Source: Candidatus Limnocylindria bacterium (lineage in GTDB: Bacteria > Chloroflexota > Limnocylindria > P2-11E). Taken from it: a DNA stretch of 64,000 nt. The stretch is taken from positions 1,534-65,533 of the forward strand of contig DASYUC010000145.1 of assembly GCA_036001645.1 (NCBI GenBank), given 5' to 3'. The translations under genes were made by a program, and so were the position numbers. The notes under the pieces were generated by a model. The model was not told the origin of the DNA. It made no database searches and was given only the letters and a program-made list of their open reading frames with translations. Within the stretch, counting starts at the first letter, position 1; every line of letters starts with the position of its first letter. Positions 11,356 through 64,000 of this stretch are shown piece after piece.

Positions 11356-11360
11356 CCTAG
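10425..11360 (+). CDS. IS481-family DDE transposase (integrase core domain)
   Basis: N-terminal HTH (GVSRRTVYRWRRR). rve-type core: VGVDIK..., TDNGSAYRS, and NGRAERFIGTIQRE. The TTG start at 10425 follows GGAGGG. Confidence 0.9.
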   Translation: MYQTDRLNPRLRAFVVAEAERIGVTQAARNVGVSRRTVYRWRRRAPEFDDRPCRPHRSPRRCADALEASVLALRLEERIGPDRIGPSLGLHPSTVHRILRRHGAHRLSHLFPKPPRSFGTFAPLRPGELVGVDIKSFGSLGRGGGRAAVMHHNPRRKVGWRHLHVAIDMASRLVFSEFRPTLAGADAIAFVDHATAFFAGRGIQVERILTDNGSAYRSNQFAAACRAAGLRHTRTKVRHPWTNGRAERFIGTIQRECAYRDQFNSDEERALAIALFVPWYNTLRPHHGLGGLTPQSWLDRWRVTQVRGDLT

Positions 11361-15787: not shown

Positions 15788-16822
15788 TTGCGAGATGTGA
15801 TCGGGCAGCGTCGCCTGCTCGCCAGGCTTGGCGAGCGAGCGGCCCGGGGCGACGTGGCCCATGGATACGAGCTCAGCGGTCCGCGGTCGATCGGAAAGCA
15901 CACGCTGGCGGTGCGGTTGGCGCAGACACTCAACTGCGCGACCGAGCCGACGGTGCCGGGCGGATGCGGCGTTTGCCTCGCCTGCCGGAAGATCGAGCGC
16001 GGTCTGCATCCGGACGTCCGCGAGATCACGCGGCTCGTCGACCAGGCGAAGCGCGATGACCGCAAGAACATCACGATCGAGCAGATCCGCGAGATGCAGC
16101 AGGACCTCGCGCTGCGGCCGCTCGAGGGCCGCCGGCGTGTCGTCATCATCGACGACGCCGCCGACCTCTCGGAGCACGCCGAGGTCGCATTGCTCAAGAC
16201 GCTGGAGGAGCCGCCGTCGCACGCGGTGCTCCTGTTGATCACCCCGACACCGTCGCGCCTGCTCGAGACCATCCGGTCGCGCCTGCAGCCGTTGCCGTTC
16301 CGTTCCGTCGCGCGTGTCGAGATCGAGCAAGCGCTGGTCGCCCGGTTGGGCCAGAGCGCGGCGCGCTTCGCAGCGCCCGCGGCGGGCAAGCCCGGCATCG
16401 CGCTCGCGCTCGCGATGGACGACGGCGCGCGGACGGCCCGCAAGCAGTTCGAAGCCGAGTTCTACCGTCTCGTCGGCAGCAAGCTCACCGAGCGGTTCGC
16501 GTGGGCCGCCGCGCTCGCGGACGAACGCGACAGCCAGAAGCGAAGCGAGCTCATCGAGAACCGCTTGGTGAACTGGAGCGAGCTCGTCCGCGATGCCGCC
16601 GTGGCCGGGACCGGCGTCGCCGATCGCGCGATGCGGCCCGACCGCGATGACGAGAGTCGCCGTCTCGCTGCGAAGGTGTCGACGCGGGAGCTCGTCGATC
16701 TCGCGCAGCGTATGGAGCGGTGGCGGCGTGACGTCGTCGAGACGACGGTCAGCGCACGCATGCTGCTCGAGCTCTTCGTGCTGAAGCTCCCATACGACGA
16801 AACATTTGCGGAGGCTGCCTAG
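15788..16822 (+). CDS. holB: DNA polymerase III delta' subunit
   Basis: HGYELSGPRSIGKHTLA, zinc module CGVCLACRKIERGLHPDV, and ALLKTLEEPP. The TTG at 15788 or the GTG at 15797 is the start. Confidence 0.85.
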   Translation: MRDVIGQRRLLARLGERAARGDVAHGYELSGPRSIGKHTLAVRLAQTLNCATEPTVPGGCGVCLACRKIERGLHPDVREITRLVDQAKRDDRKNITIEQIREMQQDLALRPLEGRRRVVIIDDAADLSEHAEVALLKTLEEPPSHAVLLLITPTPSRLLETIRSRLQPLPFRSVARVEIEQALVARLGQSAARFAAPAAGKPGIALALAMDDGARTARKQFEAEFYRLVGSKLTERFAWAAALADERDSQKRSELIENRLVNWSELVRDAAVAGTGVADRAMRPDRDDESRRLAAKVSTRELVDLAQRMERWRRDVVETTVSARMLLELFVLKLPYDETFAEAA

Positions 16823-19306: not shown

Positions 19307-19367
19307 CAGCTATCGGACGCGTCGCGAGCGAGAGTCGAGACCGCGGTATCGGGCGATGTGCCCGCTG
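19307..19367 (+). repeat. Partial copy (C) of the GC-rich palindromic intergenic repeat family
   Basis: GAGCGAGAGTCGAGACCGCGGTATC matches the copy B interior at 22/25. GCGATGTGCCCGCTG matches the copy B arm at 14/15. The central ~45 nt are missing. Confidence 0.6.
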
Positions 19368-19374
19368 TCGACCC

Positions 19375-24006: not shown

Positions 24007-24078
24007 TACCCCCGAGGCGGATCGAACGCCTGTCTACGGCTTCGGAGGCCGCCGCTCTATCCACTGAGCTACGGGGGC
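24007..24078 (-). tRNA. tRNA-Arg (anticodon CCG)
   Basis: Reverse complement GCCCCCGTAGCTCAGTGGATAGAGCGGCGGCCTCCGAAGCCGTAGACAGGCGTTCGATCCGCCTCGGGGGTA folds as a cloverleaf. The anticodon loop is CTCCGAA. No CCA is encoded. Confidence 0.85.
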
Positions 24079-27369: not shown

Positions 27370-27669
27370 ATGCTCAGTCAGTCGTACCTCCGCGAGCTGA
27401 AGGCGTTCCACCGCGCGCTCGGCGACGTCACGCGGCTCCGCGTCGTGCAGATCCTGGCGACCGAAGGTGAGTTCCCTGTCTCCGAGCTCGTTCGGCGTCT
27501 CCGGATCAGCGCGCCACTCATGTCGTGGCATCTGCGCCGCCTCGCCGGCGCGGGCATCGTCCGAACCGAGCGGGTCGGCCGCGAGGTCCGCTGCTCGTTC
27601 GATCGGGAGCGCTTCGCAGAGCTCCAGGAGCGGAGCTTCCGCGCGCTCGTGAATCGGTCGACGCCGTGA
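27370..27669 (+). CDS. ArsR-family transcriptional regulator (99 aa)
   Basis: LGDVTRLRVVQILA...VSELVRRLRISAPLMSWHLRRLAGAGIV is a wHTH. Confidence 0.8.
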   Translation: MLSQSYLRELKAFHRALGDVTRLRVVQILATEGEFPVSELVRRLRISAPLMSWHLRRLAGAGIVRTERVGREVRCSFDRERFAELQERSFRALVNRSTP

Positions 27670-28280
27670 GCATCGTGCCCGGTCGCCTCGCCGGCTCTCT
27701 CCGTGGCGGTCTCGCCCCGGTGGCCCGTCGCCTCCAGAGGCTCGGGGTCAGAGCGAACACCGTCACGGTCCTGGGCTTCTTCCTCACCGTCGTCGGCGCC
27801 GTGCTCCTCGCGACGGCGCAGCCCGCTCCCGCACTGGTCGTGCTGCTGCTCGGCACCCTCTGCGACACGCTGGACGGTCAGCTCGCGCGCGCGGCCGGCG
27901 GCGGCACGCGATTCGGCGCGTTCCTTGACTCCACGCTCGACCGCCTCTCCGACGCGGCGCTCGCGATCGCGGCGGTCCAGCTCGGCGCCACGCTTCCCGA
28001 CCCCGTGCTGTACGGCGACGGCCTCGTCCTGCTGGTCGCATCGTTCCTCGTCAGCTACATCCGCGCCAAAGCGGAATCGCTCGGCGAACGCGCGAACGTC
28101 GGCGTCGCTCCGCGCGAGGCGCGTATCGCGCTCTACCTCATCGGTGTGGCGGCGTGGGCCGTCACGGGATTCACCTTCCTGTTCGCGGCGGCGGTGGTCG
28201 TCGCCGCGTTCCTCGCCACCCTCACCGTCATCCAGCGCATCGCCCACCTGGCGAACGCGCTCAATGAAAAGAAAGGTTGA
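27666..28280 (+). CDS. CDP-alcohol phosphatidyltransferase, phosphatidylinositol-phosphate synthase-like (PgsA1-like)
   Basis: [30 protein letters not shown] motif. The GTG overlaps the ArsR stop, and the gene is adjacent to ino1. Confidence 0.75.
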
Positions 28281-28290
28281 AATAACGGAG

Positions 28291-29427
28291 ATGCCCACAA
28301 AGAAGCGAACGACGCGCGGCCGTGCCATTGGCCGCAAGATCCGCGTCGCGATCATCGGTGTCGGCAACTGCGCGAGCTCGCTCGTGCAGGGCGTGCACTA
28401 CTACCGCAACGCGAAGCCGGGCGACCCGATCCCGGGGATCATGCACGTCGATCTCGGCGGTTATCACATCCGTGACGTGGAGTTCGTCGCGGCGTTCGAC
28501 GTCGACAAGAACAAGGTCGGCAAGGACCTCGCCGATGCGGTCTACGCGAAGCCGAACAACACCTATCGCTTCGCCGACGTGCCCAAGACGGGTGTGAAGG
28601 TGAGCCGGGGTATGACGCACGACGGCATCGGGAAGTACCTGTCCAAGGTCATCACCAAGGCGCCCGGCGAGACCGCGGACATCGTCAAGATCCTTCGCGA
28701 CACGAAGACCGACGTCGTCGTCTCGTATCTCCCCGTCGGCAGCGAGGAAGCGACGAAGTGGTACGTCGAGCAGGTCCTCGAAGCGGGATGCGCGTTCATC
28801 AACTGCATCCCCGTCTTCATCGCCCGGGAACCGTACTGGCAGAAGCGCTTCGCGGCGAAGGGCCTGCCGATCATCGGCGACGACATCAAGTCGCAGGTCG
28901 GCGCGACCATCACGCACCGCGTGCTCACCCGGCTCTTCATGGATCGTGGCGTGCGGCTCGACCGAACGTATCAGCTGAACTTCGGCGGGAACACCGACTT
29001 CCTGAACATGCTCGAACGCGAGCGTCTCGAGTCGAAAAAGATCAGCAAGACGAACGCGGTCACGAGCATGCTCGACTACCCTCTGGACCCAGATGACGTC
29101 CACGTGGGCCCGTCCGACTACGTCCCGTGGCTGCTCGACCGCAAGTGGTGCTACATCCGTATGGAGGGCACGACGTTCGGCGACGTGCCGCTGAACGTCG
29201 AGGTGAAGCTGGAGGTGTGGGACTCACCGAACAGCGCGGGCGTCGTCATCGATGCGATCCGCTGCTGCAAGCTCGCGCTCGACCGGGGCCTGGGCGGCAC
29301 GATCGTGGCGCCGTCGGCGTACTTCATGAAGTCGCCGCCGCGACAGATCCACGACGACAAGGCGCGCGAAGGCGTCGAGGCGTACATCAAGGGCTCGGAC
29401 CAGACCACGCTCGCGGGGAAGGCCTAG
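28291..29427 (+). CDS. ino1: myo-Inositol-1-phosphate synthase
   Basis: [38 protein letters not shown], and NFGGNTDF. The ATG at 28291 follows ACGGAG; an alternative ATG is at 28264. Confidence 0.9.
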
Positions 29428-30347
29428 TGCGGCTGCGCGTCCCGTTCCGGGACGGCCTCGTGTACTGGTCGTGGCGCACGGCGGCAGCGCTGGTCCAGCG
29501 CCTCCCCGAGCGCCTCGTGTACTTCGGAGCGGTCGTGGGTGGTGAGTTCGCGTATCTCGTCTGGCGTCGCAGGCGCGAGATCACCAAGCGCAACTTCGCG
29601 GTCGTCCTCGGGCGATCGGCGGGGGATCGGGAGGTCGCGAGCGTCGCGCGCCGTGCCTTCCGCAACTTCGGCAAGTACCTGACGGAGATCATGCGGTTCC
29701 CATCGATGGGCCAGGCCGAGCTACACGACCTCGTGAGGATCGATCCGACCTCGCACCAGCACCTGCAGGCCGCGCGAGACGCGGGCCACGGGATCATCTT
29801 CGTCTCCGCGCATTTCGGGAACTTCGAGATCGGTGGCGCGCGGATCGCGCAGGAGATCCCGCTCACGGTCGTCGCCGACGAGCTCGAGAACGTGCGGCTC
29901 ATGGACTTCCTGGTGGCGAACCGCGAGCACAAGAACGTCGTCATCTTGCCGCCTCAGGGCGCGACCCGCCGCGTGCTCGCCGCCCTACGCCGCAATGAGA
30001 TGGTGGGCTTCATGATGGATCTCGGCCCGCGCGCTCACGAGCTCGACAACGTGCAGGCGACCTTCTTCGGCGTCCGCACCGCCTTCCCGACCATCGCCGC
30101 GGCCCTCGCCCGCGTCTCGGGAGCGCCGATCATCGTCGCGGCGGTCACTCGAGACCGCGACAACTCGTTCAAGGGAGTCGCCCTCCCGCCGCTCTTCGTC
30201 GAGCGCACGAAGCAGGCGGCGAGCGACCTGGAGCGCGCGACGCAGGCGATCGTGCATGCGCTCGAGGGACTGATGCGACCGGAAGTGGACCAGTGGTACA
30301 TCTTCCGTCCGATGTGGCCGGCGCCCCTGGACGCCGCCGCGACCTAG
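29427..30347 (+). CDS. Lysophospholipid/lipid A-type acyltransferase (HtrB/PatA-like) 1
   Basis: LPLAT pattern (SAHFGNFE HX4D-like region). The GTG overlaps the ino1 stop (TAGTG). Confidence 0.7.
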   Translation: MRLRVPFRDGLVYWSWRTAAALVQRLPERLVYFGAVVGGEFAYLVWRRRREITKRNFAVVLGRSAGDREVASVARRAFRNFGKYLTEIMRFPSMGQAELHDLVRIDPTSHQHLQAARDAGHGIIFVSAHFGNFEIGGARIAQEIPLTVVADELENVRLMDFLVANREHKNVVILPPQGATRRVLAALRRNEMVGFMMDLGPRAHELDNVQATFFGVRTAFPTIAAALARVSGAPIIVAAVTRDRDNSFKGVALPPLFVERTKQAASDLERATQAIVHALEGLMRPEVDQWYIFRPMWPAPLDAAAT

Positions 30348-30349
30348 CG

Positions 30350-31195
30350 GTGCTCACGGGAGCGCTCTCCCGCGCGGCGGAGCGCGCCCTGCCGCTGATG
30401 CCGAAGGCGCTCATCGGCCCCTTCGCCGAGGTCGTGGGGAGTCTCGCCTTTCTTGCGGCGCCACGTGCTCGGCGCGCCGTGCACGCCAACCTTTCGGTGA
30501 TCGCTCCCGAGCGGAACAGCCATGCTGTCGTGCGGCGCGTCTTCGTCGAGCAGACCCGCAACTACGTCGAGATCTTTTCGATCCCGCGGACGGATCCCAA
30601 GAAGCTCCTCGCCGAGATCCGGGCGGATGGGTGGGAGCACGTGGCCCGCGCCTACGAGCAGGGCAAGGGAGTGATCCTCGCCAGCGCGCACCTGGGGCCG
30701 GTGTCCTTCGTTGGCCAGATGGTGCTCGCGCACGGTTATCCGGTGGCGCTGCCGATCGAGATCGCGACGTCGGAATTCCAGCGGTCGGTGAACCGCGCGC
30801 GGAGCGGCGCCGGTCTGCAGCTCATCCGTACCGACTCAGCGCTGGGCATCTTCCGCTTCCTCCGCGACGGGAAGGTGCTCGGTATCCTCGCCGACCGCGC
30901 CGTGACCGGCGTCGGCGAGCGGGTCGAGTTCTTCGGGCGCGAGGCGCTGCTTCCCTCGGCTGCCGTCGTGCTGTCCTTGCGCACCGGCGCGCCCCTCGTG
31001 CCGTCTTTCGCGGGACGGAGCGACGGCGTGCTCACGGCCACGTTCGAGCCGCCGCTCGAGATCCCGAATACCGGCGACCGCGACGCGGACGTGCGCGAGG
31101 GCGTCCAGCGTTTCGCGCGGGTGCTGGAGCGCTACGTGCGCCGTTCGCCGGATCAATGGACCGTCTTCGAGGACTTCTGGCATGGGCCGCGCTGA
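30350..31195 (+). CDS. Lysophospholipid/lipid A-type acyltransferase (HtrB/PatA-like) 2
   Basis: SAHLGPVSF region, paralogous to the preceding gene. GTG start at 30350. Confidence 0.7.
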   Translation: MLTGALSRAAERALPLMPKALIGPFAEVVGSLAFLAAPRARRAVHANLSVIAPERNSHAVVRRVFVEQTRNYVEIFSIPRTDPKKLLAEIRADGWEHVARAYEQGKGVILASAHLGPVSFVGQMVLAHGYPVALPIEIATSEFQRSVNRARSGAGLQLIRTDSALGIFRFLRDGKVLGILADRAVTGVGERVEFFGREALLPSAAVVLSLRTGAPLVPSFAGRSDGVLTATFEPPLEIPNTGDRDADVREGVQRFARVLERYVRRSPDQWTVFEDFWHGPR

Positions 31196-31910
31196 CCTTC
31201 AGCTGCACTCCGACCTCGGGGACGGGCTCGCGTCGCCGGAGGCGATCCTCGACGCGGCGGAGCGCGTGGGACTCGATCTCATCGCGCTCACCGATCACGA
31301 CGACATCCGCGGCGCATTCCTGCTGCGCGACATCGCCGCGCGCCGCTCGAGCCCGGTCGAGATCGTTCCCGGCGTCGAGGTCACGACCCGCTCGGGTCAC
31401 CTGCTCGCGCTCTGGATCGAAGAGGAGCTGCCGATGTTCGCGGCGCTCGCGGACACGGTGTCGCGCATCCATCGCGCGGGTGGGGTCGCGATCGTGCCGC
31501 ATCCCCTCTCCTACCTCACGTTCTCCGTCGGCGAGGGCGCCCTGCGCTCGCTCGCGGCCGCCGCCGATCCCCTCGTCCACGTCGACGGGATCGAGACGCG
31601 CAATCCCTCCTACGCCGGCCGCGTGCGGGGCGCCCGCGCGACGTGGCTCAACGAGAACGTGCTGCACGTCGCGGAGACGGGCTCGAGCGACGCCCACCAC
31701 GCCAGGCTGGTCGGCACGACCTGGACCGACTTCGAGGGCAAAGGCTCCGCTGCGCTGCGTCGCGCGATCGCGGATCGCACGACACGACCGGACGGAAGAC
31801 ACTGGACGCTCGGCGAGCACCTTGACGGGGTCGCGCGTCAGCAGTGGCGCTCGATGGTGCGCGATCCGGTGAAGCGCGCGAGGAGACGCATCAGGAAGGC
31901 CAGAGATTGA
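31182..31910 (+). CDS. PHP-domain metal-dependent phosphoesterase
   Basis: DLQLHSDLGDG, ALTDHDD, VPHP, and SSDAHH are the PHP His/Asp motifs. Confidence 0.8.
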   Translation: MGRADLQLHSDLGDGLASPEAILDAAERVGLDLIALTDHDDIRGAFLLRDIAARRSSPVEIVPGVEVTTRSGHLLALWIEEELPMFAALADTVSRIHRAGGVAIVPHPLSYLTFSVGEGALRSLAAAADPLVHVDGIETRNPSYAGRVRGARATWLNENVLHVAETGSSDAHHARLVGTTWTDFEGKGSAALRRAIADRTTRPDGRHWTLGEHLDGVARQQWRSMVRDPVKRARRRIRKARD

Positions 31911-33028
31911 TCAAGATCGGGATCGTGTCGCCGTATGCGTATCCGCGTCCGGGCGGCGCGAACGCGCACATCCGCGAAACGTACGAGCGGCTACGGGACA
32001 TGGGCCATGAGGTGCGGATCATCACCGCGCCCTGGGGCGACGACCCGCCGGCGCGTGACGTGATACAGGTCGGTCAGGCCATCGCGGTGCCCTTCAACGG
32101 GAGCATCGGTCGCGTGACGCTGTCGCTGCGCCTCGAATGGCTCGTGTCGCGGATGCTCGAGCGCGAGAAGTTCGACGTCATCCACCACCACGAGCCGTTC
32201 GTCCCGTTCCTTTCGTTCCAGATCCTCGACTCCGCCAAGTGCCCGCACGTCGCGACCTTCCACGCGTTCGGCGGGTTCTCGGTCTCGTACTGGGCCGGCC
32301 GGATCGCGCTCGATCGATACATGAACAAGCTCGACGAGAAGATCTGCGTGTCGAGCGCGGCGCGCCACTTCATCCGGGCGTACTTCCCCGGCGAGTACAA
32401 GATCATCCCCAACGGCGTCGACGTGCAGTTCTATGCGAACGCGCGGCCCTTCCCGGAGTTCAAGGACGGCAAGACGAATATCCTCTTCGTCGGGCGCCTC
32501 GAGCCCCGCAAAGGCGCGATGTATCTGCTGCAGGCGTACGCGAAGCTGAAGCCCAAGTACCCAGACACACGGCTCATCATCTGCAACTGGGGTCCGCAGC
32601 TCGGAAAGCTCCGGCGCTTCGTCCATGACAACCACCTGCAGGACGTGCTGTTCGCTGGCCGCGTCGACGACATCGACAAGGCGCGCTTCTACAAGACCGC
32701 AGACATCTTCTGCGCGCCGTCCACCGGCCAGGAATCGTTCGGGATCGTGCTGCTCGAGGCCATGGCCGCCGGCCTCCCGGTCGTGGCGAGCGACATCCAC
32801 GGCTACAAGCGTGTCGTACAGCGAAATGTTTCGGGCCTTCTCGTCGAGCCACGGGACCCCGATGGCATCGCCGCGGCGTTGGAGCGGCTCATCTGCGACC
32901 CCGCTCTGCGCGTACGACTGGGCGAGGCTGGCTCGCGCCGCGCGCCCGAATTCGACTGGTCGCACGTCACCGCGCAGCTCGTCGGCGTGTACGAGGAGGT
33001 CATCGGGAAGCGCCGGGCCATGGTCTAG
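31907..33028 (+). CDS. pimA: GT4 glycosyltransferase, phosphatidylinositol mannosyltransferase-like
   Basis: Collinear by eye with mycobacterial PimA: IGIVSPYAYPRPGG, FDVIHHHEP, IPNGVD, and ESFGIVLLEAMAAG. The TTG start overlaps the PHP stop. Confidence 0.7.
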   Translation: MIKIGIVSPYAYPRPGGANAHIRETYERLRDMGHEVRIITAPWGDDPPARDVIQVGQAIAVPFNGSIGRVTLSLRLEWLVSRMLEREKFDVIHHHEPFVPFLSFQILDSAKCPHVATFHAFGGFSVSYWAGRIALDRYMNKLDEKICVSSAARHFIRAYFPGEYKIIPNGVDVQFYANARPFPEFKDGKTNILFVGRLEPRKGAMYLLQAYAKLKPKYPDTRLIICNWGPQLGKLRRFVHDNHLQDVLFAGRVDDIDKARFYKTADIFCAPSTGQESFGIVLLEAMAAGLPVVASDIHGYKRVVQRNVSGLLVEPRDPDGIAAALERLICDPALRVRLGEAGSRRAPEFDWSHVTAQLVGVYEEVIGKRRAMV

Positions 33029-37900: not shown

Positions 37901-38674
37901 TCACTCTCCCTTCCATACCGGCTTCCGCTTCTCCATGAAGGCCTGCACGCCCTCGCGGAAGTCCCGGCTCATGTAGCAGAGGAGGATGAGGTCGGCGCTC
38001 TCCTCCGGGAGCATGCGCTCGCGGATGCGCCGAAGCGCCTCCTTCGTCGCCTGCAGCGTCAGCGGCGCGTGCGACGCGATCGTCCGCGCGAGCTCGTCGA
38101 CCCGCGGCACGAGCGCGTCCTCGTCCTTCGTGACCTCGTGGTAGAGGCCGATCCGAAACGCCTCGTCCGCGTCCAGGAGACGCGCGGTGAAGACGATCTC
38201 CTTCACGCGCGCGACCCCGACGAGCGACGACAGGCGCACGAGGTTGGCCATCGAAAAGCAGTTGCCGAGGGTCCGCGCGACCGGGACGCCGAAGCGAGCG
38301 GAGGGCGCCGCGATGCGCAGGTCGCAGGCGGCGGCGATCGCGGCCCCGCCGCCCACGACCGGGCCTCGCAGCGCGGCGATCGTCGGGACGCGCACGCGCT
38401 CCAGCGCGGTCATCCAGGCATCCATACGCGCTTCGTACTCGAGCGCGTCCTGCTCCTTCGTGAATCCGCTGAACTGCGAGATGTCAGTGCCCGAGACGAA
38501 TGCGCCGCCCGCGCCGGTGAGCACGAGAGCGCGAACGCCGCGATCGGCATCCACTTCGCGGGCGACCTCGGCCATGCGCTCGTACATCGCGAACGTCATC
38601 GCATTGCGCGCCTCGGGCCGATTGAACGTGAGCCACACGACGTCGCCACGGCGCTCGACGAGCACTTCGCTCAC
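37901..38674 (-). CDS. Enoyl-CoA hydratase/isomerase (crotonase family)
   Basis: LTFNRPEARNAM, VLTGAGGAFVSGTDI, and GPVVGGGAAIAAACD. Confidence 0.85.
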   Translation of the reverse strand: MSEVLVERRGDVVWLTFNRPEARNAMTFAMYERMAEVAREVDADRGVRALVLTGAGGAFVSGTDISQFSGFTKEQDALEYEARMDAWMTALERVRVPTIAALRGPVVGGGAAIAAACDLRIAAPSARFGVPVARTLGNCFSMANLVRLSSLVGVARVKEIVFTARLLDADEAFRIGLYHEVTKDEDALVPRVDELARTIASHAPLTLQATKEALRRIRERMLPEESADLILLCYMSRDFREGVQAFMEKRKPVWKGE

Positions 38675-39867
38675 GCCGCCGCCACCGTCCCGCGCGCCAC
38701 GAACGCGCGGACCTCCTCATCGGAGTGTCCGATCTCACGAAGCACCTCGGTGGAGTGCTCGCCCAGCAGTGGCCCGGCACGCTCGAGGCGCGCCGGTGAA
38801 GAGCGCAGGCGCAGCGGGGTGCCCAGCGCGCGGACGGTCCCGAGCCGCGAGTGCGGCAGATCGACGAAGAAGCCTCGCTCGCGAAGGTGCGGATCGTCGA
38901 AGACCTGGCCGTAGTCCTGGATCTCCGCGCAGGGAACGCCGGCCTGTCGCAGCACCGCGAGCCAGTGCGCCGCCGGACGGGTAGCGGTGACCTCTTCGAT
39001 GAGCGGGATGAGCTCCACTCGGTTGCGCTGCCGGAGGGTCCCATCCGCGAAGCGCGGATCGCGCTCCAGGCGTTCGAGTCCGAGCGCAGCGCAGAACGCG
39101 CGCCAGGTCGGCACGGTGGTCGCTCCGAGCACGAAATGCGCGTCCGCGGCGCGCACCGCCTGGTACGGACCGACGAGCTTGTGGGCGGATCCGGCCGCGC
39201 GCGCGATCTCTCCGGTGGTAAAGAACTGTCCGGCCTCCCAGACCGCGAGAGAGACCGACGACTCGTACATCGAGATGTCGACGAGCTGCCCGCGGCCATC
39301 GCGCTGGCGGACGCTCAGCGCGGCGAGGATGCCGATCGTCGCGTACAGGCCCGCCGCGAGGTCGGAGATCGACACGCCCACCTTTACCGGCGCGCCTCCC
39401 TCCTCGCCCGTGACGCTCATGAGACCGCTCATCGCCTGAACGATGATGTCGAGCGCCGGACGGTCGGCGTAGGGGCCGTCGAGACCCCAGCCGGTGACCG
39501 CGGCGTAGACGAGGCGCGGATTCGCGTCGAGCAGGGCCTGCGGCTCGAGGCCGAGGTCGCGCATCGTGCCGGGCCGGAGGTTCTCCACGACGACATCGGC
39601 CCGCGCGGCGAGGCGTCGAAAGATCTCGGCGCCGGCCTCCTGCTTCAGATCGAGGGCGACGCTGCGCTTACCGCGATTGAGTCGCACGAAGTTGCCGCTC
39701 TCGCCGTCGACGAACGGCTCGAGGCGTCGGGACAGATCCCCGCCACGCGGGTCCTCGATCTTGACGACGTCGGCACCGAGATCCCCGAGCTGCATCCCAC
39801 AGAACGGACCCGCCATGTAGTTACCGACCTCGAGGACACGGATCCCCTCAAGGGGTGGTGGAGGCAT
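38671..39867 (-). CDS. Family III CoA-transferase (CaiB/BaiF)
   Basis: LEGIRVLEVGNYMAGPFCGMQLGDLGADVVKIE and a conserved Asp region. Confidence 0.85.
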   Translation of the reverse strand: MPPPPLEGIRVLEVGNYMAGPFCGMQLGDLGADVVKIEDPRGGDLSRRLEPFVDGESGNFVRLNRGKRSVALDLKQEAGAEIFRRLAARADVVVENLRPGTMRDLGLEPQALLDANPRLVYAAVTGWGLDGPYADRPALDIIVQAMSGLMSVTGEEGGAPVKVGVSISDLAAGLYATIGILAALSVRQRDGRGQLVDISMYESSVSLAVWEAGQFFTTGEIARAAGSAHKLVGPYQAVRAADAHFVLGATTVPTWRAFCAALGLERLERDPRFADGTLRQRNRVELIPLIEEVTATRPAAHWLAVLRQAGVPCAEIQDYGQVFDDPHLRERGFFVDLPHSRLGTVRALGTPLRLRSSPARLERAGPLLGEHSTEVLREIGHSDEEVRAFVARGTVAAA

Positions 39868-39907
39868 GCGCGGAGTCTAGGGAGAGAAGCCGAGCCATCG
39901 TCGGAGC

Positions 39908-40006
39908 CAGCGGGCGCATCGCTCTCTCGAAACGGGCCCGCTCCGCGCGCTTGCGCCCCGGAGTGCGATCCCGCGGCCTCGACTCTCGTTCGCGATGCGC
40001 CCGCTG
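39908..40006 (-). repeat. Full copy (B) of the GC-rich palindromic intergenic repeat family
   Basis: Perfect 15-bp arms CAGCGGGCGCATCGC (39908-39922) and GCGATGCGCCCGCTG (39992-40006) enclose 69 nt. The interior is homologous to copy A in reverse orientation. Confidence 0.8.
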
Positions 40007-40044
40007 ACTCCCATCCCTACGAGCGCATGAGGACTGGATCGCGA

Positions 40045-41151
40045 CTAGCACTCCCCCCAGCGCTCGGCCACCTTGCCGTCGCGGAGTCTCCAGACACCCG
40101 ACACGCCGCCACTCGAGCCGATGATCCAGAGATCCTGGCCGCGAGCGAACACGCTCGTCAGGACACAGGTCGTTCCGATGTCGACGCGTTCGAGCACAGG
40201 CTTCGGTGCGACCTCAGGGGCGACAGGACTGACGAGAAGCGCGCCCTGGACCCTGAGCACGACGCCGTCGTCACCCACGGCCCACGCGGTCGATCCCACC
40301 GCGGTGACCGAACGCAGCGGAGTGTCGATCCCGGACTCGACCTTCGACCACTCGAGCCCGGAGAGCGCGAGGACCGTCCCGCCGTCGCCGACGGCGACCG
40401 CGGTGTCGATCTTCGGCGCCGCGATCGCGCGAAGCGTGACATCCACGCCGGTCTTCACCGGCCGCCAACCGGCGGCCTCGAGGCGATAGCTGATCCCCTG
40501 GCTCCCGACGACCCAGGCGGATTGCGCATCGAAGACGATCAACGCGTTCAGGTCCTCCTCGATGCCGGCCGCGTACGGCTGCCAGGTCCCGCCGGACAGC
40601 AACATGACCAGACCCTGAGTGCCCACGACCATCGCGCCCTGTGGCATGGCCGCGACGCCCCTGAGGTCCTCGAGCGTCACGTCGAATGTGTTGATCGAAC
40701 GCGCGCGGTCGTCGACGATGAGGACGGCCCCGACCGGGCCGACGCCGTAAAGGATCCCGGCGTCGCACGACGCATGAGTGAGGGTCCGCAGCGTGCCGTC
40801 CACCTGAGTCCAGTCCTTCCCGTCGTAGCGGATCAGGCCGCCGCCGTTGCTCACCACCCAGAGTCCCTGCTCCGTGACGCAGCCGGCGGACAGCGTCTGC
40901 CGGAAGACGGAGGGATCGGTCGTCGGCACCGGCGTTGGCGTCGGGACCGCGACGGTCGGCGTGGGACGCGGTGTCGCGCGCGGTCGCGCGATGGTTCCCA
41001 CCGCGAGGCCCCCTCCGATCGCCGCGACAACGAGGAGCACGGCGATGATCCCGGCGTACGAGAGGGGTAACGGGCTGGCTTTCGCCGGCGCGGGGCTGGG
41101 AGGACCCTGGACCTCTGGTGGCGGTGGCGGTGGCGGCGTCGTCGCCATCAC
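40045..41151 (-). CDS. Membrane-anchored beta-propeller-like protein (Ycf48/BNR-like repeats), Pro-rich N-terminus
   Basis: MMATTPPPPPPP, one TM, then repeated G-x-V/I-x...W-x-x-V blades. The ATG overlaps the htpX stop. Confidence 0.5.
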   Translation of the reverse strand: MMATTPPPPPPPEVQGPPSPAPAKASPLPLSYAGIIAVLLVVAAIGGGLAVGTIARPRATPRPTPTVAVPTPTPVPTTDPSVFRQTLSAGCVTEQGLWVVSNGGGLIRYDGKDWTQVDGTLRTLTHASCDAGILYGVGPVGAVLIVDDRARSINTFDVTLEDLRGVAAMPQGAMVVGTQGLVMLLSGGTWQPYAAGIEEDLNALIVFDAQSAWVVGSQGISYRLEAAGWRPVKTGVDVTLRAIAAPKIDTAVAVGDGGTVLALSGLEWSKVESGIDTPLRSVTAVGSTAWAVGDDGVVLRVQGALLVSPVAPEVAPKPVLERVDIGTTCVLTSVFARGQDLWIIGSSGGVSGVWRLRDGKVAERWGEC

Positions 41152-47131: not shown

Positions 47132-48028
47132 ATGGAGATCGGGCTCTACGGCCTGGGCCGGATGGGCGGCAACATGGTCACGCGTCTGGTCCGCGGCGGT
47201 CACCGCGTCGTCGCGGGAAATCGGAGCCCGGGGCCGGTCGACGAGTCCAAGGCCGGTGGCGCGGTCGGCGCCTACACGATCGAGGAGATGGTCGAACAGC
47301 TGCGGCCCCCGCGCGTCCTCTGGTCGATGGTGCCTGCGGGCGAGGCGACCGATCACACGCTCGATGAATTCGCGCGTTATGCGAGCAAGGGCGACGTACT
47401 GGTCGACGGCGCCAACTCGTACTTTCGCGACTCCATTCGCCGCGCGCAGAAATACACGGCGCTCGGATTCGATTTCCTCGACGTCGGCGTCTCCGGCGGC
47501 GTATGGGGACTCGAGAACGGCTATTGCATGATGGTCGGCGGCGAGGCACGCGCGGTGCAGCGCGTCACGCCGGTGCTCGACACGCTCGCGCCTCCGAACG
47601 GGTGGGCGCATTTCGGGAAGAGCGGCGCGGGCCATTTCATCAAGATGGTCCACAACGGGATCGAGTACGGGATGATGCAGGCGTACGGCGAGGGCTTCGA
47701 GCTCATTCACGCCAGCGAATTCGACATCGATATGAAGCGCGTCGCGCAGGTCTGGCTTCAGGGAAGCGTCGTGCGGTCGTGGCTCCTCGAGCTCGCCGAG
47801 CGCGCGTTCGAGCAGGAGGGCCCCGACCTCGCGAACATCAAGGGCTGGGTCGCCGATTCCGGCGAGGGGCGGTGGACGATCATGGAGGCGATCGCGCACG
47901 ACGTACCCGCGACCGTGCTCGCGCACTCGCTCTTCGCGCGCTTCACCTCTCGTCAGGACGACTCCTACGCGATGAAGGTCGCGGCCGCGCTGCGCAACCA
48001 ATTCGGCGGGCATGCGGTGAAGAAGTGA
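47132..48028 (+). CDS. gnd: 6-phosphogluconate dehydrogenase, short (YqeC/Gnd-like, decarboxylating)
   Basis: IGLYGLGRMGGNM Rossmann motif, DGANSYF, and GAGHFIKMVHNGIEYGMMQAYGEG. Confidence 0.85.
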   Translation: MEIGLYGLGRMGGNMVTRLVRGGHRVVAGNRSPGPVDESKAGGAVGAYTIEEMVEQLRPPRVLWSMVPAGEATDHTLDEFARYASKGDVLVDGANSYFRDSIRRAQKYTALGFDFLDVGVSGGVWGLENGYCMMVGGEARAVQRVTPVLDTLAPPNGWAHFGKSGAGHFIKMVHNGIEYGMMQAYGEGFELIHASEFDIDMKRVAQVWLQGSVVRSWLLELAERAFEQEGPDLANIKGWVADSGEGRWTIMEAIAHDVPATVLAHSLFARFTSRQDDSYAMKVAAALRNQFGGHAVKK

Positions 48029-48065
48029 GCGAGGGACGCGGCGCGCTGGGTTCGCCGAGGTGATC

Positions 48066-48172
48066 GCGGCGGCGGGCGTCTCTGGAGCGAAGTCGAGCCC
48101 GCGGGATCAGCAGGTCGGCGCGCCACGGCAGCGAAGCGGGCCCGTTTGAGCGACAGAGACGCCCGCCGCCGC
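48066..48172 (+). repeat. Full copy (A) of the GC-rich palindromic intergenic repeat family, in the zwf leader
   Basis: Perfect 19-bp arms GCGGCGGCGGGCGTCTCTG (48066-48084) and CAGAGACGCCCGCCGCCGC (48154-48172) enclose 69 nt. The right arm ends 5 nt before the zwf ATG. Confidence 0.85.
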
Positions 48173-48177
48173 GGCGT

Positions 48178-49701
48178 ATGACCGTCGCGCTCGCCAATCC
48201 GCTCCGCGAGGGTCTGCGGCTCGCGCGAACCCCGGAGCCGGCGTGTCTCGTCATCTTCGGTGCATCGGGCGACCTCACCGCGCGCAAGCTCATCCCGGCG
48301 CTCTACAACCTCGCGCTCCAACATCTGCTCCCGGCGAGCTTCGCGGTGATCGGTTCCGCCCGCCGCCGGATGACAACGGACGAGTTCCGCTCGGAGCTCC
48401 ACGACGCGGTCGCGGAGTTCAGCCGCACCAAGCCGATCAACGAAGAGGTCTGGTCGACATTCGCTCGGTCGATCCACTACGTCCCGACACCCGACGACCG
48501 CAGCTACGACGAGCTGGGGCACGTCCTCGCCCGCATCGACGGCGAGATCGGCGCGAACGGCAATCGTCTCTTCTACCTCGCGACGCCCCCGGCCGCGTAC
48601 GAGCCGATCATCCACGCGATCGGCGCTCATGGACTGCGTGGCGAGACCGGCTGGTCGCGCGTCGTCGTGGAGAAGCCGTACGGCCACGACCTCGAGAGCG
48701 CGATGCACCTGACGCACGTCGTCCAGGAGGTCTTCCGCGAGGACGAGGTCTTCCGGATCGACCACTACCTCGGCAAGGAGACCGTGCAGAACATCCTGGT
48801 CCTGCGCTTCGCGAACAGCATCTTCGAGCCGATCTGGACACGTCAGCACGTCGATCACGTGCAGATCACGGCCGCCGAATCGATCGGGATCGAAGAGCGG
48901 GCGGGCTACTACGACAGCGCCGGTGCGATGCGCGACATCGTTCAGAACCATCTCCTGCAGCTCCTCGCTCTCGTCGGGATGGAGCCTCCGTCCGCGTTCG
49001 ACGATCGTTCGGTACGCGACGAGAAGGTCAAGGTGCTGCGCGCGCTCCGGCGGATCGCACCGGACGAGGTCGGCGACCTCACGGTCCGCGGCCAGTACGG
49101 TCCCGGGTTCATCGGCGGCGAGCGTGTCGTGGGCTACCGCGATGAGCCTGGCGTCGCGCCGAACTCGCAGACCGAAACGTATGTCGCGCTCAAGTGCTTC
49201 ATCGACAACTGGCGCTGGGAAGACACGCCCTTCTACATCCGGACGGGGAAGCGGCTGCCGAAGCGCTCCACCGAGATCGCGATCCGCTTCCGGGTCGCTC
49301 CGCACCGGATCTTCACCCGCGAGTCGTCTCTGGGCCTCGACGCGAACGAGCTCGTCATACGGATCCAGCCCGACGAAGGCATCTCCCTCACGTTCGGGGC
49401 GAAGGTGCCGGTGCAGGGCCTGAAGATCCGTTCGGTGAACATGGACTTCGGATACGGCGAATCGTTCATGGTCGACGCGCCCGACTCGTACGAGACGCTC
49501 ATCCTCGACGCGCTCCGGGGCGACGCCACCCTCTTCACGCGCCGGGACGAGGTCGAGCAGCAGTGGGCATTCGTCGACCCGATCCTTGCCGGCTGGCAGG
49601 CGGGCCGGCAGGAGCTCGCGCTCTACGCCGCCGGCACGTGGGGGCCGGAGTTGGCCGACGCGCTCATCGCGCGCGACGGTCGGAGCTGGCGACGGCCGTG
49701 A
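48178..49701 (+). CDS. zwf: Glucose-6-phosphate dehydrogenase
   Basis: VIFGASGDLTARKL, RIDHYLGKE, and EKPxG motifs. Confidence 0.95.
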   Translation: MTVALANPLREGLRLARTPEPACLVIFGASGDLTARKLIPALYNLALQHLLPASFAVIGSARRRMTTDEFRSELHDAVAEFSRTKPINEEVWSTFARSIHYVPTPDDRSYDELGHVLARIDGEIGANGNRLFYLATPPAAYEPIIHAIGAHGLRGETGWSRVVVEKPYGHDLESAMHLTHVVQEVFREDEVFRIDHYLGKETVQNILVLRFANSIFEPIWTRQHVDHVQITAAESIGIEERAGYYDSAGAMRDIVQNHLLQLLALVGMEPPSAFDDRSVRDEKVKVLRALRRIAPDEVGDLTVRGQYGPGFIGGERVVGYRDEPGVAPNSQTETYVALKCFIDNWRWEDTPFYIRTGKRLPKRSTEIAIRFRVAPHRIFTRESSLGLDANELVIRIQPDEGISLTFGAKVPVQGLKIRSVNMDFGYGESFMVDAPDSYETLILDALRGDATLFTRRDEVEQQWAFVDPILAGWQAGRQELALYAAGTWGPELADALIARDGRSWRRP

Positions 49702-50831
49702 TCGGGGTCGACGAAGCGTTCTGGGGTGCGCGCGCGACGAGCATCGACGCGCTCGAGCGCGAGCTGGCTCGACTCAGACGCGCCGCGCTGGCACACGCGA
49801 AAGAGCGCGGCCACACGCTCGCGCGAGCGTCGGTGCTCAATCTCGTCGTCTACGCCGAGCGCGAGGTGCATGCGCGACGGGCAGCGCGGACCGTCGCGGA
49901 TCTCGCCCTTCGGCATCCCTCTCGCGCGATCGTCGTGCTGGGAGACCGGGGTCGCGAGGGCGTGCTCGCGTCCGTGCAGCTGCATTGCCATGTTCCGCCG
50001 TCCGATGGTGGAAAGCCGGTGTTGTACGAGCAGATCCTCGCGCGAGTGCGGGGGGACTTCGACGAGCGCGTCGCGAGCGTCGTCATCCCGCTGCTCGTTC
50101 CGGACCTGCCGGTATTCCTGTGGTGGACCGGGACGCCACCGAGCGACGCGCGGCACGTGGACGATCTCGTGACGCTCGCGGACCGGCTCATCGTCGATTC
50201 GGCCGACTTCGCGCGCGCCGACCTCACGTTGCCTGAGGTCGCGCGCCTTTCGCGCCTGCGCGTCGGCATCACCGATCTCAACTGGGCGCGGCTCACGCAC
50301 TGGCGCGAGCTCGTCGCGCAGTTCTTCGACGTACCCGCCTGGCGCCCGTTCCTGGGTGGGATCACGGGCATCCGCGCGGGGTTCGCCGTCGATATGGATG
50401 GCCGCGACATCCATCCATCGCAGGCGCTGCTGCTCCTGGGATGGATCGCGTCGCGGTTGGGCTGGCGTCCGGTGGAAGCGCTCGCCCCCTCGGAGGCCGG
50501 CGGCCTGCTCTTCAAGATGGCGCGCGCGGACAACGCGCCGGTCATGGTGCGCCTGCGACCGCGATTCGAGCGTGGCCTCGACACCGGCGACGTATCGGGC
50601 GTCCGTATCCAGGCCGCGGTCGGTCGCAACACGGCGGAGTTCGTGATCAAGCGCGCGCCGGACGAACGCCACGCGACGGCGACCGCGATCATCGACGGCG
50701 TGGTCCGCGCGGAGCGCGTCGTGCCGCTTCCCGCGCTCGGCATCCGCGAGCTTCTCGGCGAGGAGCTCGCGATCGCGGGGAACGACCACGTCTACGAGGC
50801 TGCGCTCGCGGCGATCATGGCGCTGGCCTGA
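49698..50831 (+). CDS. opcA: Glucose-6-phosphate dehydrogenase assembly protein OpcA
   Basis: It follows zwf with a GTGA overlap and has the DLPVFLWWTG motif. Confidence 0.8.
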   Translation: MIGVDEAFWGARATSIDALERELARLRRAALAHAKERGHTLARASVLNLVVYAEREVHARRAARTVADLALRHPSRAIVVLGDRGREGVLASVQLHCHVPPSDGGKPVLYEQILARVRGDFDERVASVVIPLLVPDLPVFLWWTGTPPSDARHVDDLVTLADRLIVDSADFARADLTLPEVARLSRLRVGITDLNWARLTHWRELVAQFFDVPAWRPFLGGITGIRAGFAVDMDGRDIHPSQALLLLGWIASRLGWRPVEALAPSEAGGLLFKMARADNAPVMVRLRPRFERGLDTGDVSGVRIQAAVGRNTAEFVIKRAPDERHATATAIIDGVVRAERVVPLPALGIRELLGEELAIAGNDHVYEAALAAIMALA

Positions 50832-61971: not shown

Positions 61972-62265
61972 TCACGGCGCGGGAACGCAGCGCAGACGTG
62001 CGATGCGGCTCGCGGGCGCCCGGTCCGCGAGGGCGTTCAGGAGGTCACGTTCGCGCAGGCGGATCTCTCCAGCCCACTGAGCGGTCGGCACCAGCACGAC
62101 GAGGGTGTCGCCGTCGGTGCGGACCGCGCGCGTCGTCACCGCATCCGCGCCGAGGACCAGCGTCGCGGCCGCATGCCACTCGCGCACCGCGTCCGCGCGC
62201 GCGACGCCCTGGTCGATCCCCAGCGTCCGCAGCGCGCGCTGGACCGCGCGCGCGATCGGCCTCAT
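61972..62265 (-). CDS. DUF721 (DciA-like) protein
   Basis: Small basic protein immediately after recF (ATGA overlap), the canonical DUF721 position. It has a W..(V/I)..T..V.....L.V motif pattern. Confidence 0.6.
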   Translation of the reverse strand: MRPIARAVQRALRTLGIDQGVARADAVREWHAAATLVLGADAVTTRAVRTDGDTLVVLVPTAQWAGEIRLRERDLLNALADRAPASRIARLRCVPAP

Positions 62266-63377
62266 CCGACCTCGCCGCGGCGCACCGGCACCACTGTCGC
62301 GCGCTCGCGGAGCACGTCCGGCAGCGCCGTGGCGATCGCCGCCGTCAGCAGCGTTTGCGCATCCTCGGGGATGGCGCGCGCCAGCGCCTCACGCCGCGCG
62401 GGATCGAGCTCCGACAGCACGTCGTCAAGCAGGAAGACCGGCTGCTCCCCGACGCGTGACGCGAGCCACGCCGCCTCCGCGATCTTGAGGGAGAGCACGG
62501 CGCTGCGGTGCTCACCGCGCGACGCGAACGCCGGCAACATCCGGCCGGCGGCCGTCACGACCAGGTCGTCGCGCTGCGGACCGACGAGCGACGAGCCCTG
62601 CCAGCGCTCGCGGTCGCGCTTCTCGCGCAGCACGACCTGATAAGCGCTTGCGCGCTCCTCGACCGACGTTCCCGCCACCTGTCCGGCGTACGCGAGCACC
62701 AGGCCCTCGGCGCCGGTGAAGAGCTCGGTCGCGCTGACGAACGGCGCGGACAGCTCGGCCACGAGCCCCGAGCGCCGGAACGAGATCGCAGCTGAGAGAC
62801 GAACGAGCTCTCGGTCCCAGAACGCCATCTCCTCCTCGGGCAGCTCGAGCTCGTCCCGCGCGACGCGCAGGAGCGCGTTGCGCTGCTCGAGAACGCGCTG
62901 GAGCTCGCGCATCTCGCGCCGATGCGCGCGGTCGATCTGACCCAGCATCGCGTCGAGGAAGCGGCGACGCGCGCTCGGCGCGGCTCCGAGCAGCTCGACG
63001 TCCTCCGGAAAGAACGCGACGACGACGAGCTCGCCGACGGTGTCTTCCGGGCGCTTCCCCGCCCCGTCCAGCATGTAGCGGCGCGGCCGGCGGCGCTCGC
63101 CTTCAGGGGGCGCGAACAGCAGCGTCTCGATGCGGCGGTGACCCTCGGCGCGATCGACCTCGGTGCGCACGCGTGCGGTCGTCGCCCCCCAGCGGACCAT
63201 CTCGGTGTCGTCGCGAGCGCGCGGCGAATCGCCGCGCGCGATGAGATGGACGGCCTCGAGGAGATTGGTCTTGCCCGCGCCGTTCGGTCCGATGAAAGCG
63301 GTCGCGCCGCGCGCGAGCGGCAGCTCGACCTGCGCGTAACTGCGAAAATCCTCGAGTTCCAGCGCGGACACGCGCAC
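62262..63377 (-). CDS. recF: DNA replication and repair protein RecF
   Basis: FIGPNGAGKTNLLEA Walker A, signature and Walker B LLDDVLSELD. Confidence 0.9.
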   Translation of the reverse strand: MRVSALELEDFRSYAQVELPLARGATAFIGPNGAGKTNLLEAVHLIARGDSPRARDDTEMVRWGATTARVRTEVDRAEGHRRIETLLFAPPEGERRRPRRYMLDGAGKRPEDTVGELVVVAFFPEDVELLGAAPSARRRFLDAMLGQIDRAHRREMRELQRVLEQRNALLRVARDELELPEEEMAFWDRELVRLSAAISFRRSGLVAELSAPFVSATELFTGAEGLVLAYAGQVAGTSVEERASAYQVVLREKRDRERWQGSSLVGPQRDDLVVTAAGRMLPAFASRGEHRSAVLSLKIAEAAWLASRVGEQPVFLLDDVLSELDPARREALARAIPEDAQTLLTAAIATALPDVLRERATVVPVRRGEVG

Positions 63378-63380
63378 GTG

Positions 63381-64000
63381 CTAGGCCGGGATGCGGAGCG
63401 GCATCACCACATGAAGGTAATCCGAGTCGCCGACGATCCTGATGACGCCGGGCGCGAGCGGACCACCCAGCTCCAGCGCGACCTCGGGTGCCGTCAGGCT
63501 GCCGAGCGCATCGGCGATGAACCGCGAGTTGAAGGCGATGGTCGTGTTCTGCCCCTCTACTGTCGCGTCCACCTTCGCCGTCTGGTCGCCGACCTCGGCC
63601 GCGTTCGCGCTGATGATCAGCGGGGGATGGTCGGAGGGATTCACCTGGAAGCGCAGCATGTTCGCCGAGTCTCGCGCGAACAGCGACGCGAGCCGCGTCG
63701 CCTGAAGGAGCTCTTCTCGCTGCACGACGATCTTCGTCGCCGCCTTCCCCTGTGGGATGACCTGGCGATAATTCGGGAACTGCCCCTCGATGACACGTGA
63801 GACGAGGTCGGCCTCCGGGGTGTGGAAGATCACCTGGCTGCCATTCGGCGTCACGAAGATATCGACCGGGTCGTCGCTGTCATCGATGATGCGTTGCACT
63901 TCCAGCAGGCTGCGCGCGGGAATGATGACCTCGAGCTTCCCTTCGACCTTGTCCATGAGCTTCGCGTTGCGGACAGACAGACGGTAGGGGTCGGCCGCGG
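63381..64000 (-). CDS. dnaN: DNA polymerase III beta sliding clamp, C-terminal part (gene runs off the window)
   Basis: Domain II/III-like sequence ending in the typical YLHVVMPLRI tail. The reading frame stays open to the window edge. Confidence 0.85.
   Translation of the reverse strand, partial: AADPYRLSVRNAKLMDKVEGKLEVIIPARSLLEVQRIIDDSDDPVDIFVTPNGSQVIFHTPEADLVSRVIEGQFPNYRQVIPQGKAATKIVVQREELLQATRLASLFARDSANMLRFQVNPSDHPPLIISANAAEVGDQTAKVDATVEGQNTTIAFNSRFIADALGSLTAPEVALELGGPLAPGVIRIVGDSDYLHVVMPLRIPA

Follow-up and report, generated by a model that had tools for sequence, protein, structure and literature searches.

A hairpin in front of zwf in a Candidatus Limnocylindria genome as a probable member of a dispersed family of palindromic repeats

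Between gnd and zwf of a soil bacterium of the Chloroflexota (Candidatus Limnocylindria) lies a long, G+C-rich palindrome, which ends only a few nucleotides before the zwf start codon. It was noticed in a stretch of DNA of 64,000 nucleotides, called the window in the following. A position of this kind raises the question of whether the palindrome controls the entry to the oxidative pentose phosphate pathway, for example as a terminator, an attenuator or a translational gate, as had been considered in a first, sequence-only reading, or whether it came to this place for other reasons. From the results described here it is very probable that the palindrome (copy A) is one member of a dispersed, non-coding family of selfish, REPIN- or MITE-like palindromic repeats of about 107–109 nt, which occurs in soil Chloroflexota (Candidatus Limnocylindria). 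Nothing indicates that the hairpin evolved for the regulation of zwf, and an effect on zwf would appear to be incidental. The repeat family is previously undescribed; the kind of element is well known. A full-text literature search found no paper containing both "Limnocylindria" and "palindromic".

The palindrome in the gnd-zwf spacer

The genes around copy A, which were identified with Pfam, and the parts of the palindrome are as follows.

gnd, 47132–48028 (+): short-form 6-phosphogluconate dehydrogenase, 298 aa, length according to called orthologues; SD-like motif GGGGGTGA upstream
Copy A, 48065–48173 (+): full-length palindromic repeat of 109 nt in the 149-nt gnd-zwf spacer, in the orientation of the genes; covariance score 107.3 bits on the plus strand, 30.8 bits on the minus strand
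Left outer arm of copy A, 48065–48084 (+): perfect 20-bp complement of 48154–48173
Interior of copy A, 48085–48153 (+): 69 nt, asymmetric, with a conserved imperfect inner helix, two motifs and a variable apical region
Right outer arm of copy A, 48154–48173 (+): spans positions -24 to -5 of zwf, followed by 4 nt and the ATG
zwf, 48178–49701 (+): glucose-6-phosphate dehydrogenase, 507 aa; no SD and no -10-like box upstream
opcA, 49698–50831 (+): start overlaps the zwf stop; genes for a PASTA Ser/Thr kinase and a PP2C protein are next

As a description of the DNA, the sequence-only reading proved accurate in nearly all respects. The gnd stop codon is at 48026–48028, and the GC-rich palindrome of about 107 nt lies next to the zwf start, its right arm ending 4 nt before the ATG. 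Complementarity of the perfect arms 48066–48084 and 48154–48172 around the 69-nt interior was confirmed, the 3' arm of this pair covering -24 to -6 of zwf. The outer stem is extended to a total of 20 bp by C48065, as had been stated; its partner is G48173, and the "G48073" given was a typing error. The short palindromes CCGCGG (48099–48104), GGCGCGCC (48117–48124) and GGGCCC (48138–48143) are present, as is the inner stem formed by GCCCGC (48097–48102) and GCGGGC (48136–48141). The conserved and imperfect inner helix consists of GAGCGAAGTCGAGCCCGC and GCGGGCCCGTTTGAGC, the conserved interior motifs are CCGCGGGATC and GCGGGCCCGTTT, and the variable apex extends from about 48109 to 48135. According to a repeat search the dyad runs inward, with arms of 38 nt which are 82% complementary.

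For the RNA of 48060–48178 a fold of -78.9 kcal/mol was predicted, compared to -57.9 ± 3.8 kcal/mol for dinucleotide shuffles (z = -5.47), and none of 200 shuffles folded as well; the very stable multi-stem hairpin that had been expected on the gnd-zwf transcript is thus borne out by prediction. The window has a G+C content of 68.8%. In its whole length, perfect inverted repeats of more than 12 bp within 130 nt were found only in copy A and at 39908–39922/39992–40006, and in ten Markov-simulated windows the inverted repeats never exceeded 12 bp. Copy A is therefore a genuine palindrome and cannot be ascribed to chance in G+C-rich DNA.

A family of repeats and its anatomy

The name "copy A" had implied a repeated palindrome, and a second full copy was indeed found in the window, together with an internally deleted one.

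CoA-transferase family III gene, 38671–39867 (-): identified with Pfam; downstream of copy B; TAGACTCCGCGC-ATG conserved
Copy B, 39903–40011 (-): full-length repeat of 109 nt; perfect 15-bp arms 39908–39922 and 39992–40006, interior of 69 nt; 115.3 bits
Remnant C, 19313–19368 (+): internally deleted copy; 15.6 bits; left half detected by nhmmer with an E value of 1.2e-9

Copy B, with a 368-aa ORF on one side and the CoA-transferase gene on the other, is co-oriented with both; in a blastn comparison of the gnd-zwf spacer with the window it showed 76% identity over 97 nt (about 39910–40004, other strand). The interiors of copies A and B are alike and asymmetric (…GAGTCGAG-CCGCGGGATC … GCGGGCCCGTTT-GAG…); the outer arms have different sequences, and each pair is still complementary. 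Remnant C, a left half fused to a remnant of a right arm, is antisense to both genes flanking it. The window thus holds two full copies and one remnant in 64 kb, at distinct loci, namely the gnd-zwf spacer, the region upstream of the CoA-transferase gene and, for the remnant, the polyprenyl-synthase/PBP1A spacer. A marginal model match at 16479–16585 falls within holB and was regarded as fortuitous.

Members elsewhere were searched for with a pattern made from the two interior motifs of copies A and B. True members were present in Chloroflexota MAGs (L005, L007) and in soil metagenome contigs (L008, L013 and L009/10/12/16, the last group being orthologues of L005). Pattern matches in L004, L006, L011, L014 and L015 had no arms and were discarded as chance; in a viral collection a relaxed core pattern gave 15 loci, none of which was a true member by the covariance model. 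This model had been built from six copies of the repeat and gave 107 bits for copy A and 115 bits for copy B on one strand and about 30 bits on the other, and the element has, therefore, an orientation. With HMMs of half-elements, which were used for remnants and half-copies, half-copies were detected at several loci besides the remnant at 19313–19368. All copies and remnants found are intergenic. The copy in L013 lies between an ABC solute-binding-protein gene and its permease gene, that in L007 upstream of an amidohydrolase gene, and that in L008 downstream of a PSP1 gene, the orthologous site of which is empty in the window. The "A-type" arms of copy A (GCGGCGGCGGGCGyCTCyG) are common to copy A and L013; since these loci are non-orthologous, the arms are part of the repeat unit and define subfamilies. 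By the names of close Zwf homologues the organism was assigned to Candidatus Limnocylindria (Chloroflexota). A zwf product identical to that of the window has been recorded solely in soil metagenome contigs from JGI; in these the element is found in the same place and differs by one or two substitutions.

Copy B represents an abundant "B-type" subfamily, and its ends were set by the points at which soil contigs diverge. When contigs from four soil metagenomes were mapped to 39850–40060 at an identity of at least 80%, the following depths were obtained.

Unique flanks of copy B: 8–19
Two terminal segments of copy B, about 40 nt each: 110–540
Centre of copy B: 20–60

The terminal segments of copy B thus reached 10–28 times the depth of its flanks, an excess to which orthologous copies in co-occurring relatives with diverged flanks possibly contributed and which does not equal a copy number per genome. 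Exactly at 39903/39904 and 40010/40011 the contigs diverged, continuing into many kinds of flanking sequence. Depth profile and divergence points together characterize the B-type as a unit with conserved ends, a variable centre, sharp boundaries and many contexts; a practical consequence is that metagenome assemblies are visibly broken at the ends of the element. Copy A showed in the same test only about 1–3 times the depth of its flanks and thus belongs to a rare, diverged subfamily; another full A-type copy, of about 87% identity, was present in a couple of soil contigs. At the gnd-zwf locus the coding flanks had depths of 100–350 and the element-bearing spacer about 13–22, and some soil contigs contained 111–115 other letters in place of the 149-nt spacer.

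An additional right half attached behind a full copy was seen repeatedly (L005, 1864–1900; L008, 251–283). Joints in soil contigs at 39905–39940, where the sequence "goes back 33–36", match this form, which may reflect the mechanism by which copies of the element arise.

For a test of the predicted structure, eight distinct full copies were aligned with MAFFT without fitting to the covariance model. The consensus consists of an outer helix of 21 pairs, an interrupted inner helix of 11 pairs and a variable apex of about 33 columns, with 94.7% of the cells paired. Double-sided changes occurred in 14 of the 21 pairs of the outer helix and in none of the inner pairs. None of 500 shuffles reached any of five pairing measures, and pairing fell to 33–51% when the 3' partners were slid by 1–3 columns. 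The cells of the outer helix comprised 142 Watson-Crick, 4 G.U, 2 A.C and 10 other combinations; the inner helix contained 11 G.U and no A.C cells, eight of the 11 stemming from one invariant pair. Compensation that leads almost purely from one Watson-Crick pair to another is the pattern to be expected for a DNA palindrome which is kept symmetric by hairpin-dependent copying or by correction from arm to arm; an RNA helix that drifts via wobble pairs would less typically show it. The strand of the model folded better than its complement by 5–10 kcal/mol in seven of the eight copies, which, together with the G.U pairs of the inner helix, is a weak hint that one strand could be the relevant single-stranded form.

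With respect to neighbouring genes, sense orientation was found for copies A, B and L013 and antisense orientation for L005, L007, L017b and L023, so that four of the eight full copies run against their neighbours. Considering the almost pure Watson-Crick compensation and the presence of copies in both orientations to transcription, it would appear that what is preserved is the hairpin itself, most likely in single-stranded DNA when the element is copied, or through correction of one arm against the other. The terminal sequences are GGAG…CTCC (copy B, L007) or CGCGG…CCGCG (copy A), and the G+C content of the element is 0.73–0.74.

Orthologous spacers

Homologues of Zwf with identities of 74–93% were followed to syntenic contigs with the arrangement tkt, then gnd-zwf-opcA-PASTA kinase-PP2C. 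Synteny around gnd-zwf was intact in all relatives traced; the spacers between gnd and zwf were found to contain the following.

Window and L001-3, Zwf identical: 149 nt, A-type copy in sense orientation
L023/24, Zwf 93%: 208 nt, full B-type copy in antisense orientation (89.7 bits) inside an older outer palindrome
L025/26, Zwf 91%: 193 nt, a different long palindrome
L017, Zwf 90%: 103 nt, palindrome with an internal deletion and arms that are still perfect
L019, Zwf 87%: 79 nt, remnant of the right half; one of the arms has been lost
L020, Zwf 86%: about 115 nt, deleted palindrome and left-half remnant
L021/22, Zwf 80%: 16 nt, no element
L027, Zwf 77%: 7 nt, no element
L028, Zwf 74%: 39 nt, no element

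The spacer upstream of the CoA-transferase gene was compared in the same way.

Window: B-type copy in sense orientation
L005, CoA-transferase 92% identical: inverted copy and half-copy
L017: antisense copy with other arms
L020: half-remnant
L025: palindrome of a second family
L019, L027, L028: no element

These comparisons indicate that the element arrived in a sub-clade and was later inverted, deleted, nested and replaced, the gene order remaining constant. When empty and filled sites of the gnd-zwf relatives were aligned, the flanks were too diverged to place the insertion point.

Two of the loci deserve a brief description of their own. At 1840–2047 of L023 the B-type copy is situated in the loop of an older, partly decayed palindrome, and L017 possesses the palindrome without the copy; the sequences suggest a nested insertion at a site of dyad symmetry. 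A second palindromic family is represented in L025 by 8367–8559 (gnd-zwf spacer) and 102–395 (upstream of the CoA-transferase gene). The terminal segments of these two copies, of about 40 nt, are 86–88% identical, and their centres are unrelated.

The gnd-zwf and CoA-transferase spacers have thus been occupied repeatedly by different subfamilies or families among the relatives compared, and this could also reflect selection for a hairpin at these sites. On such a reading the family is mobile, but copies within operons are retained for their effect on the transcript: a generic RNA hairpin would adjust how strongly adjacent cistrons are expressed relative to each other, by stabilising the 3' end of the upstream segment, by offering a processing site for RNase III or RNase E or by slowing translational coupling. 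Recruitment of this kind is regarded as rather unlikely, even though copies A, B and L013 are co-oriented with their genes and intercistronic, L013 being located between genes for a solute-binding protein and a permease, and all seven sampled lineages with Zwf of at least 86% identity retain a long palindrome or a remnant between gnd and zwf. A duplex of 20 perfect base pairs, as in copy A, is long enough for RNase III. Effects of this sort have been reported for REP/BIME, ERIC and Correia elements, an influence on processing by RNase III or RNase E having been shown for MITEs that act in transcripts (PMC2229807). Recruitment is, however, difficult to reconcile with the half of the full copies which are antisense to their neighbours, with the loss of one arm in L019, with the relatives whose spacers of 7–39 nt do without the element, and with the rarity of G.U pairs in the covarying helix.

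An extension of this idea is that a mobilisation system which recognizes hairpins targets a few dyad-symmetric spacers, and that a hairpin which is read through was co-opted to set the ratio of gnd to zwf where the oxidative pentose phosphate pathway begins. Such targeting would be the reason why subfamilies and families repeatedly replace, invert or nest in each other at the same few intercistronic or gene-end spacers. The combination is considered improbable.

Origin of the element and consequences for the operon

For a dispersed selfish repeat, as is preferred here, spreading could have occurred without target-site duplication, e.g., by an HUH/Y1 enzyme (RAYT or IS200-type) acting on hairpins, and such an enzyme would possibly prefer existing dyad symmetry. 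Among the approximately 55 proteins of the window (Pfam) and the called genes of the syntenic loci no Y1 or RAYT transposase was found. The covariation between arm subfamilies is clean, and the recurrent occupation of two spacers could help to find the mobilising enzyme. Copies A and B are on opposite strands, and in a check for replication-strand bias the GC-skew profile of the window showed no clear trend. At the right end of the window recF and the 3' part of dnaN were present (62262–63998, minus strand); the window therefore probably adjoins the region of a replication origin.

Among known systems, REP sequences are units of about 35 nt arranged in mosaics. In Escherichia coli operons REP/BIME elements are read-through intercistronic palindromes (e.g., in the malE-malF spacer) and can stabilise the upstream mRNA. 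The location of the L013 copy between a solute-binding-protein gene and its permease gene is reminiscent of this situation; the element differs from REPs by being a single unit of about 107 nt with an asymmetric conserved interior.

The best architectural match are REPINs, which are REP doublets that form hairpins and are mobilised by RAYT transposases (Bertels and Rainey 2011, PMC3116915). Both are extragenic, about 100 nt long and predicted to form hairpins, with conserved inverted ends and a less conserved spacer, and both show frequent compensatory changes, remnants in the form of singlets or halves, partial tandem forms and no reported target-site duplication (PMC3116915). The pattern of conserved end segments is apparent from the depth of the terminal 40 nt or so of copy B (110–540 versus 20–60 in the centre), in addition to the hairpin and its compensation. 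The element differs from REPINs in that neither near any copy nor in the window was a RAYT/Y1 transposase found, that in its halves no short REP palindrome with a conserved tetranucleotide could be recognized, and that the host phylum is Chloroflexota.

Correia/NEMIS elements of Neisseria, ERIC/IRU of enterobacteria, RUP of Streptococcus pneumoniae and YPAL of Yersinia are non-coding MITEs of 100–170 bp, which are intergenic or intercistronic like the element described here, are co-transcribed with their neighbours and form long stem-loops (PMC2229807). Most of these families possess TA ends, target-site duplications and A+T-rich sequences, whereas the element has none of these. YPAL is likewise not A+T-rich and without TA ends, and it inserts at or next to dyad symmetry (PMC2229807); the nested copy in L023 points in the same direction.

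A classical MITE, i.e., a deletion derivative of an insertion sequence with a DDE transposase that is moved in trans via its terminal inverted repeats, would explain the small size (109 nt), the terminal inverted repeats (20 bp in copy A, 15 bp in copy B), the lack of coding capacity, the dispersal and the internally deleted derivatives; a size under 200 bp, terminal inverted repeats and a non-coding sequence are in agreement with the definition of such elements (PMC2229807). This origin has a low probability, however, since none of the eight copies was flanked by a direct repeat that would indicate target-site duplication, none of the eight copies examined had 5'-TA-3' termini, and the G+C content of 73–74% is the opposite of A+T richness. 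Moreover, the arms differ between subfamilies, and a transposase would need conserved arms. The ends of the sole insertion sequence in the window (10330–11360, rve transposase) are unrelated to the element. This insertion sequence lies between two GT4 glycosyltransferase genes; it encodes a transposase with HTH and rve (DDE) domains (10425–11360) and has 31-nt terminal inverted repeats with CTAG on both sides.

With respect to gene expression, it had been proposed that copy A acts as an intercistronic terminator. An intrinsic terminator would be in keeping with a GC-rich hairpin downstream of a stop codon and, for copy B, with a location between the end of the upstream gene and a probable independent leaderless promoter. 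In the CoA-transferase gene and its orthologues the conserved TAGACTCCGCGC-ATG (39868–39880 in the window) suggests a -10 box that belongs to this gene and a transcript without leader. An SD motif is exceptional among the genes of this lineage; many of them, including those for the CoA-transferase and tkt, have a TAnnnT box about 12 nt before the start; such boxes without SD were seen in many genes of L017–L028, so that the lineage seems to make wide use of leaderless mRNAs. A terminator is nevertheless very unlikely at either copy. A search for a hairpin followed by a U-tract gave no site at copies A and B, the stems being followed by GCGUAUGACC (A) and GACGAUGGCU (B), and consensus scans revealed no sigma-70-like promoter at either copy. 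Upstream of zwf neither an SD nor a -10-like box was present in any lineage compared, including those with spacers of 7–16 nt. RNA polymerase would therefore have to read through the hairpin, and efficient termination at copy A would be expected to silence both zwf and opcA. The two genes would then depend on transcription from gnd, with the hairpin as a passenger in the operon transcript. In soil RNA only two runs shared 5% of words with zwf; their contigs covered conserved coding flanks and came from other organisms.

The remaining proposal concerned a cis-regulatory RNA dedicated to zwf, that is, an attenuator, a riboswitch-like element or a translational gate of the oxidative pentose phosphate pathway. 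The very stable predicted fold which abuts the start codon, with the 3' arm over -24 to -5, and the asymmetric and conserved interior would fit this notion, yet its probability is minimal. Copies of the element were found next to unrelated genes, in sense as well as in antisense orientation, and in orthologous spacers it is absent, inverted, replaced or otherwise altered, the order of gnd, zwf, opcA, kinase and phosphatase genes being constant; the sequence-only reading had itself listed such an outcome as one that would refute its proposal. In the strain variant L001 one outer pair of copy A is broken and not compensated. No match to Rfam was obtained for the element, neither in a scan of the window at gathering thresholds nor in a scan of the L005, L007, L008 and L013 copies with E ≤ 1. 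The absence of a visible SD outside the stem had been noted correctly; it applies, however, to zwf in all relatives, whether or not they carry the element. An arm that hides the ribosome-binding site has consequently nothing to act on in any lineage, and the idea of a gate at the 3' arm is not supported.

For the preferred reading, a selfish repeat lodged in the operon, translation of zwf would probably be carried out by ribosomes arriving from gnd, or by initiation beside the helix which is independent of an SD. With the palindrome folded, only 37 + 4 nt would effectively separate the stop codon of gnd from the start codon of zwf, and this short distance may explain why such insertions are tolerated. 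The hairpin of about -79 kcal/mol may incidentally create a site for RNase III, protect the 3' end of the gnd segment or dampen the coupling between gnd and zwf, effects of a kind known from REP, ERIC and Correia elements (PMC2229807); a generic, incidental effect of copy A on stability or processing of the operon mRNA is thus plausible.

Some further interpretations were discarded. Integron attC sites carry R''/R' cores (RYYYAAC / GTTRRRY) at their ends and are found in cassette arrays with an integrase nearby; the element has termini GGAG/CTCC or CGCGG/CCGCG, no core sites and no arrays, and the window contains no integron integrase. Retrons, CRISPR or small ORFs do not apply, as RT, Cas or integrase genes were lacking and the interior is too short to code. 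A curated cis-regulatory RNA or riboswitch was dismissed, as there was no match to a family of Rfam 15, the neighbouring genes are unrelated and the orientation is mixed. The only Rfam match in the window was a tRNA gene (24007–24078, minus strand; RF00005, 65.7 bits).

Since the striking hairpin at a start codon is, in all likelihood, a dispersed repeat, annotation as a riboregulator of zwf should be avoided; more generally, a hairpin abutting a start codon in an uncultured lineage of high G+C content can be a dispersed repeat. For the biology of mobile elements, an undescribed GC-rich palindromic family without target-site duplication is added, as well as a second family of the same architecture, from a widespread group of soil Chloroflexota which has no cultured model. 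The covariance model and the HMMs of half-elements can be used for masking or mapping these repeats.

Other features of the window were noted in the course of the work. Two adjacent genes for regulators of the LuxR/GerE type, of about 560–590 aa and with overlapping stop and start, are located at 2–3453 (plus strand). Long ORFs without Pfam match were present at 5978–9150, namely 6014–7357 (minus strand), 7036–7632 and 7777–8607 (both plus strand), beside an ORF for an HNH endonuclease (8617–9150); this stretch failed the filter for G+C by codon position which was used for other genes. A cluster resembling those for phosphatidylinositol-mannoside synthesis extends from 27525 to 33028 and comprises genes for a CDP-alcohol phosphatidyltransferase, a myo-inositol-1-phosphate synthase, two acyltransferases of the lipid-A type, a PHP-associated protein and a GT4 glycosyltransferase.
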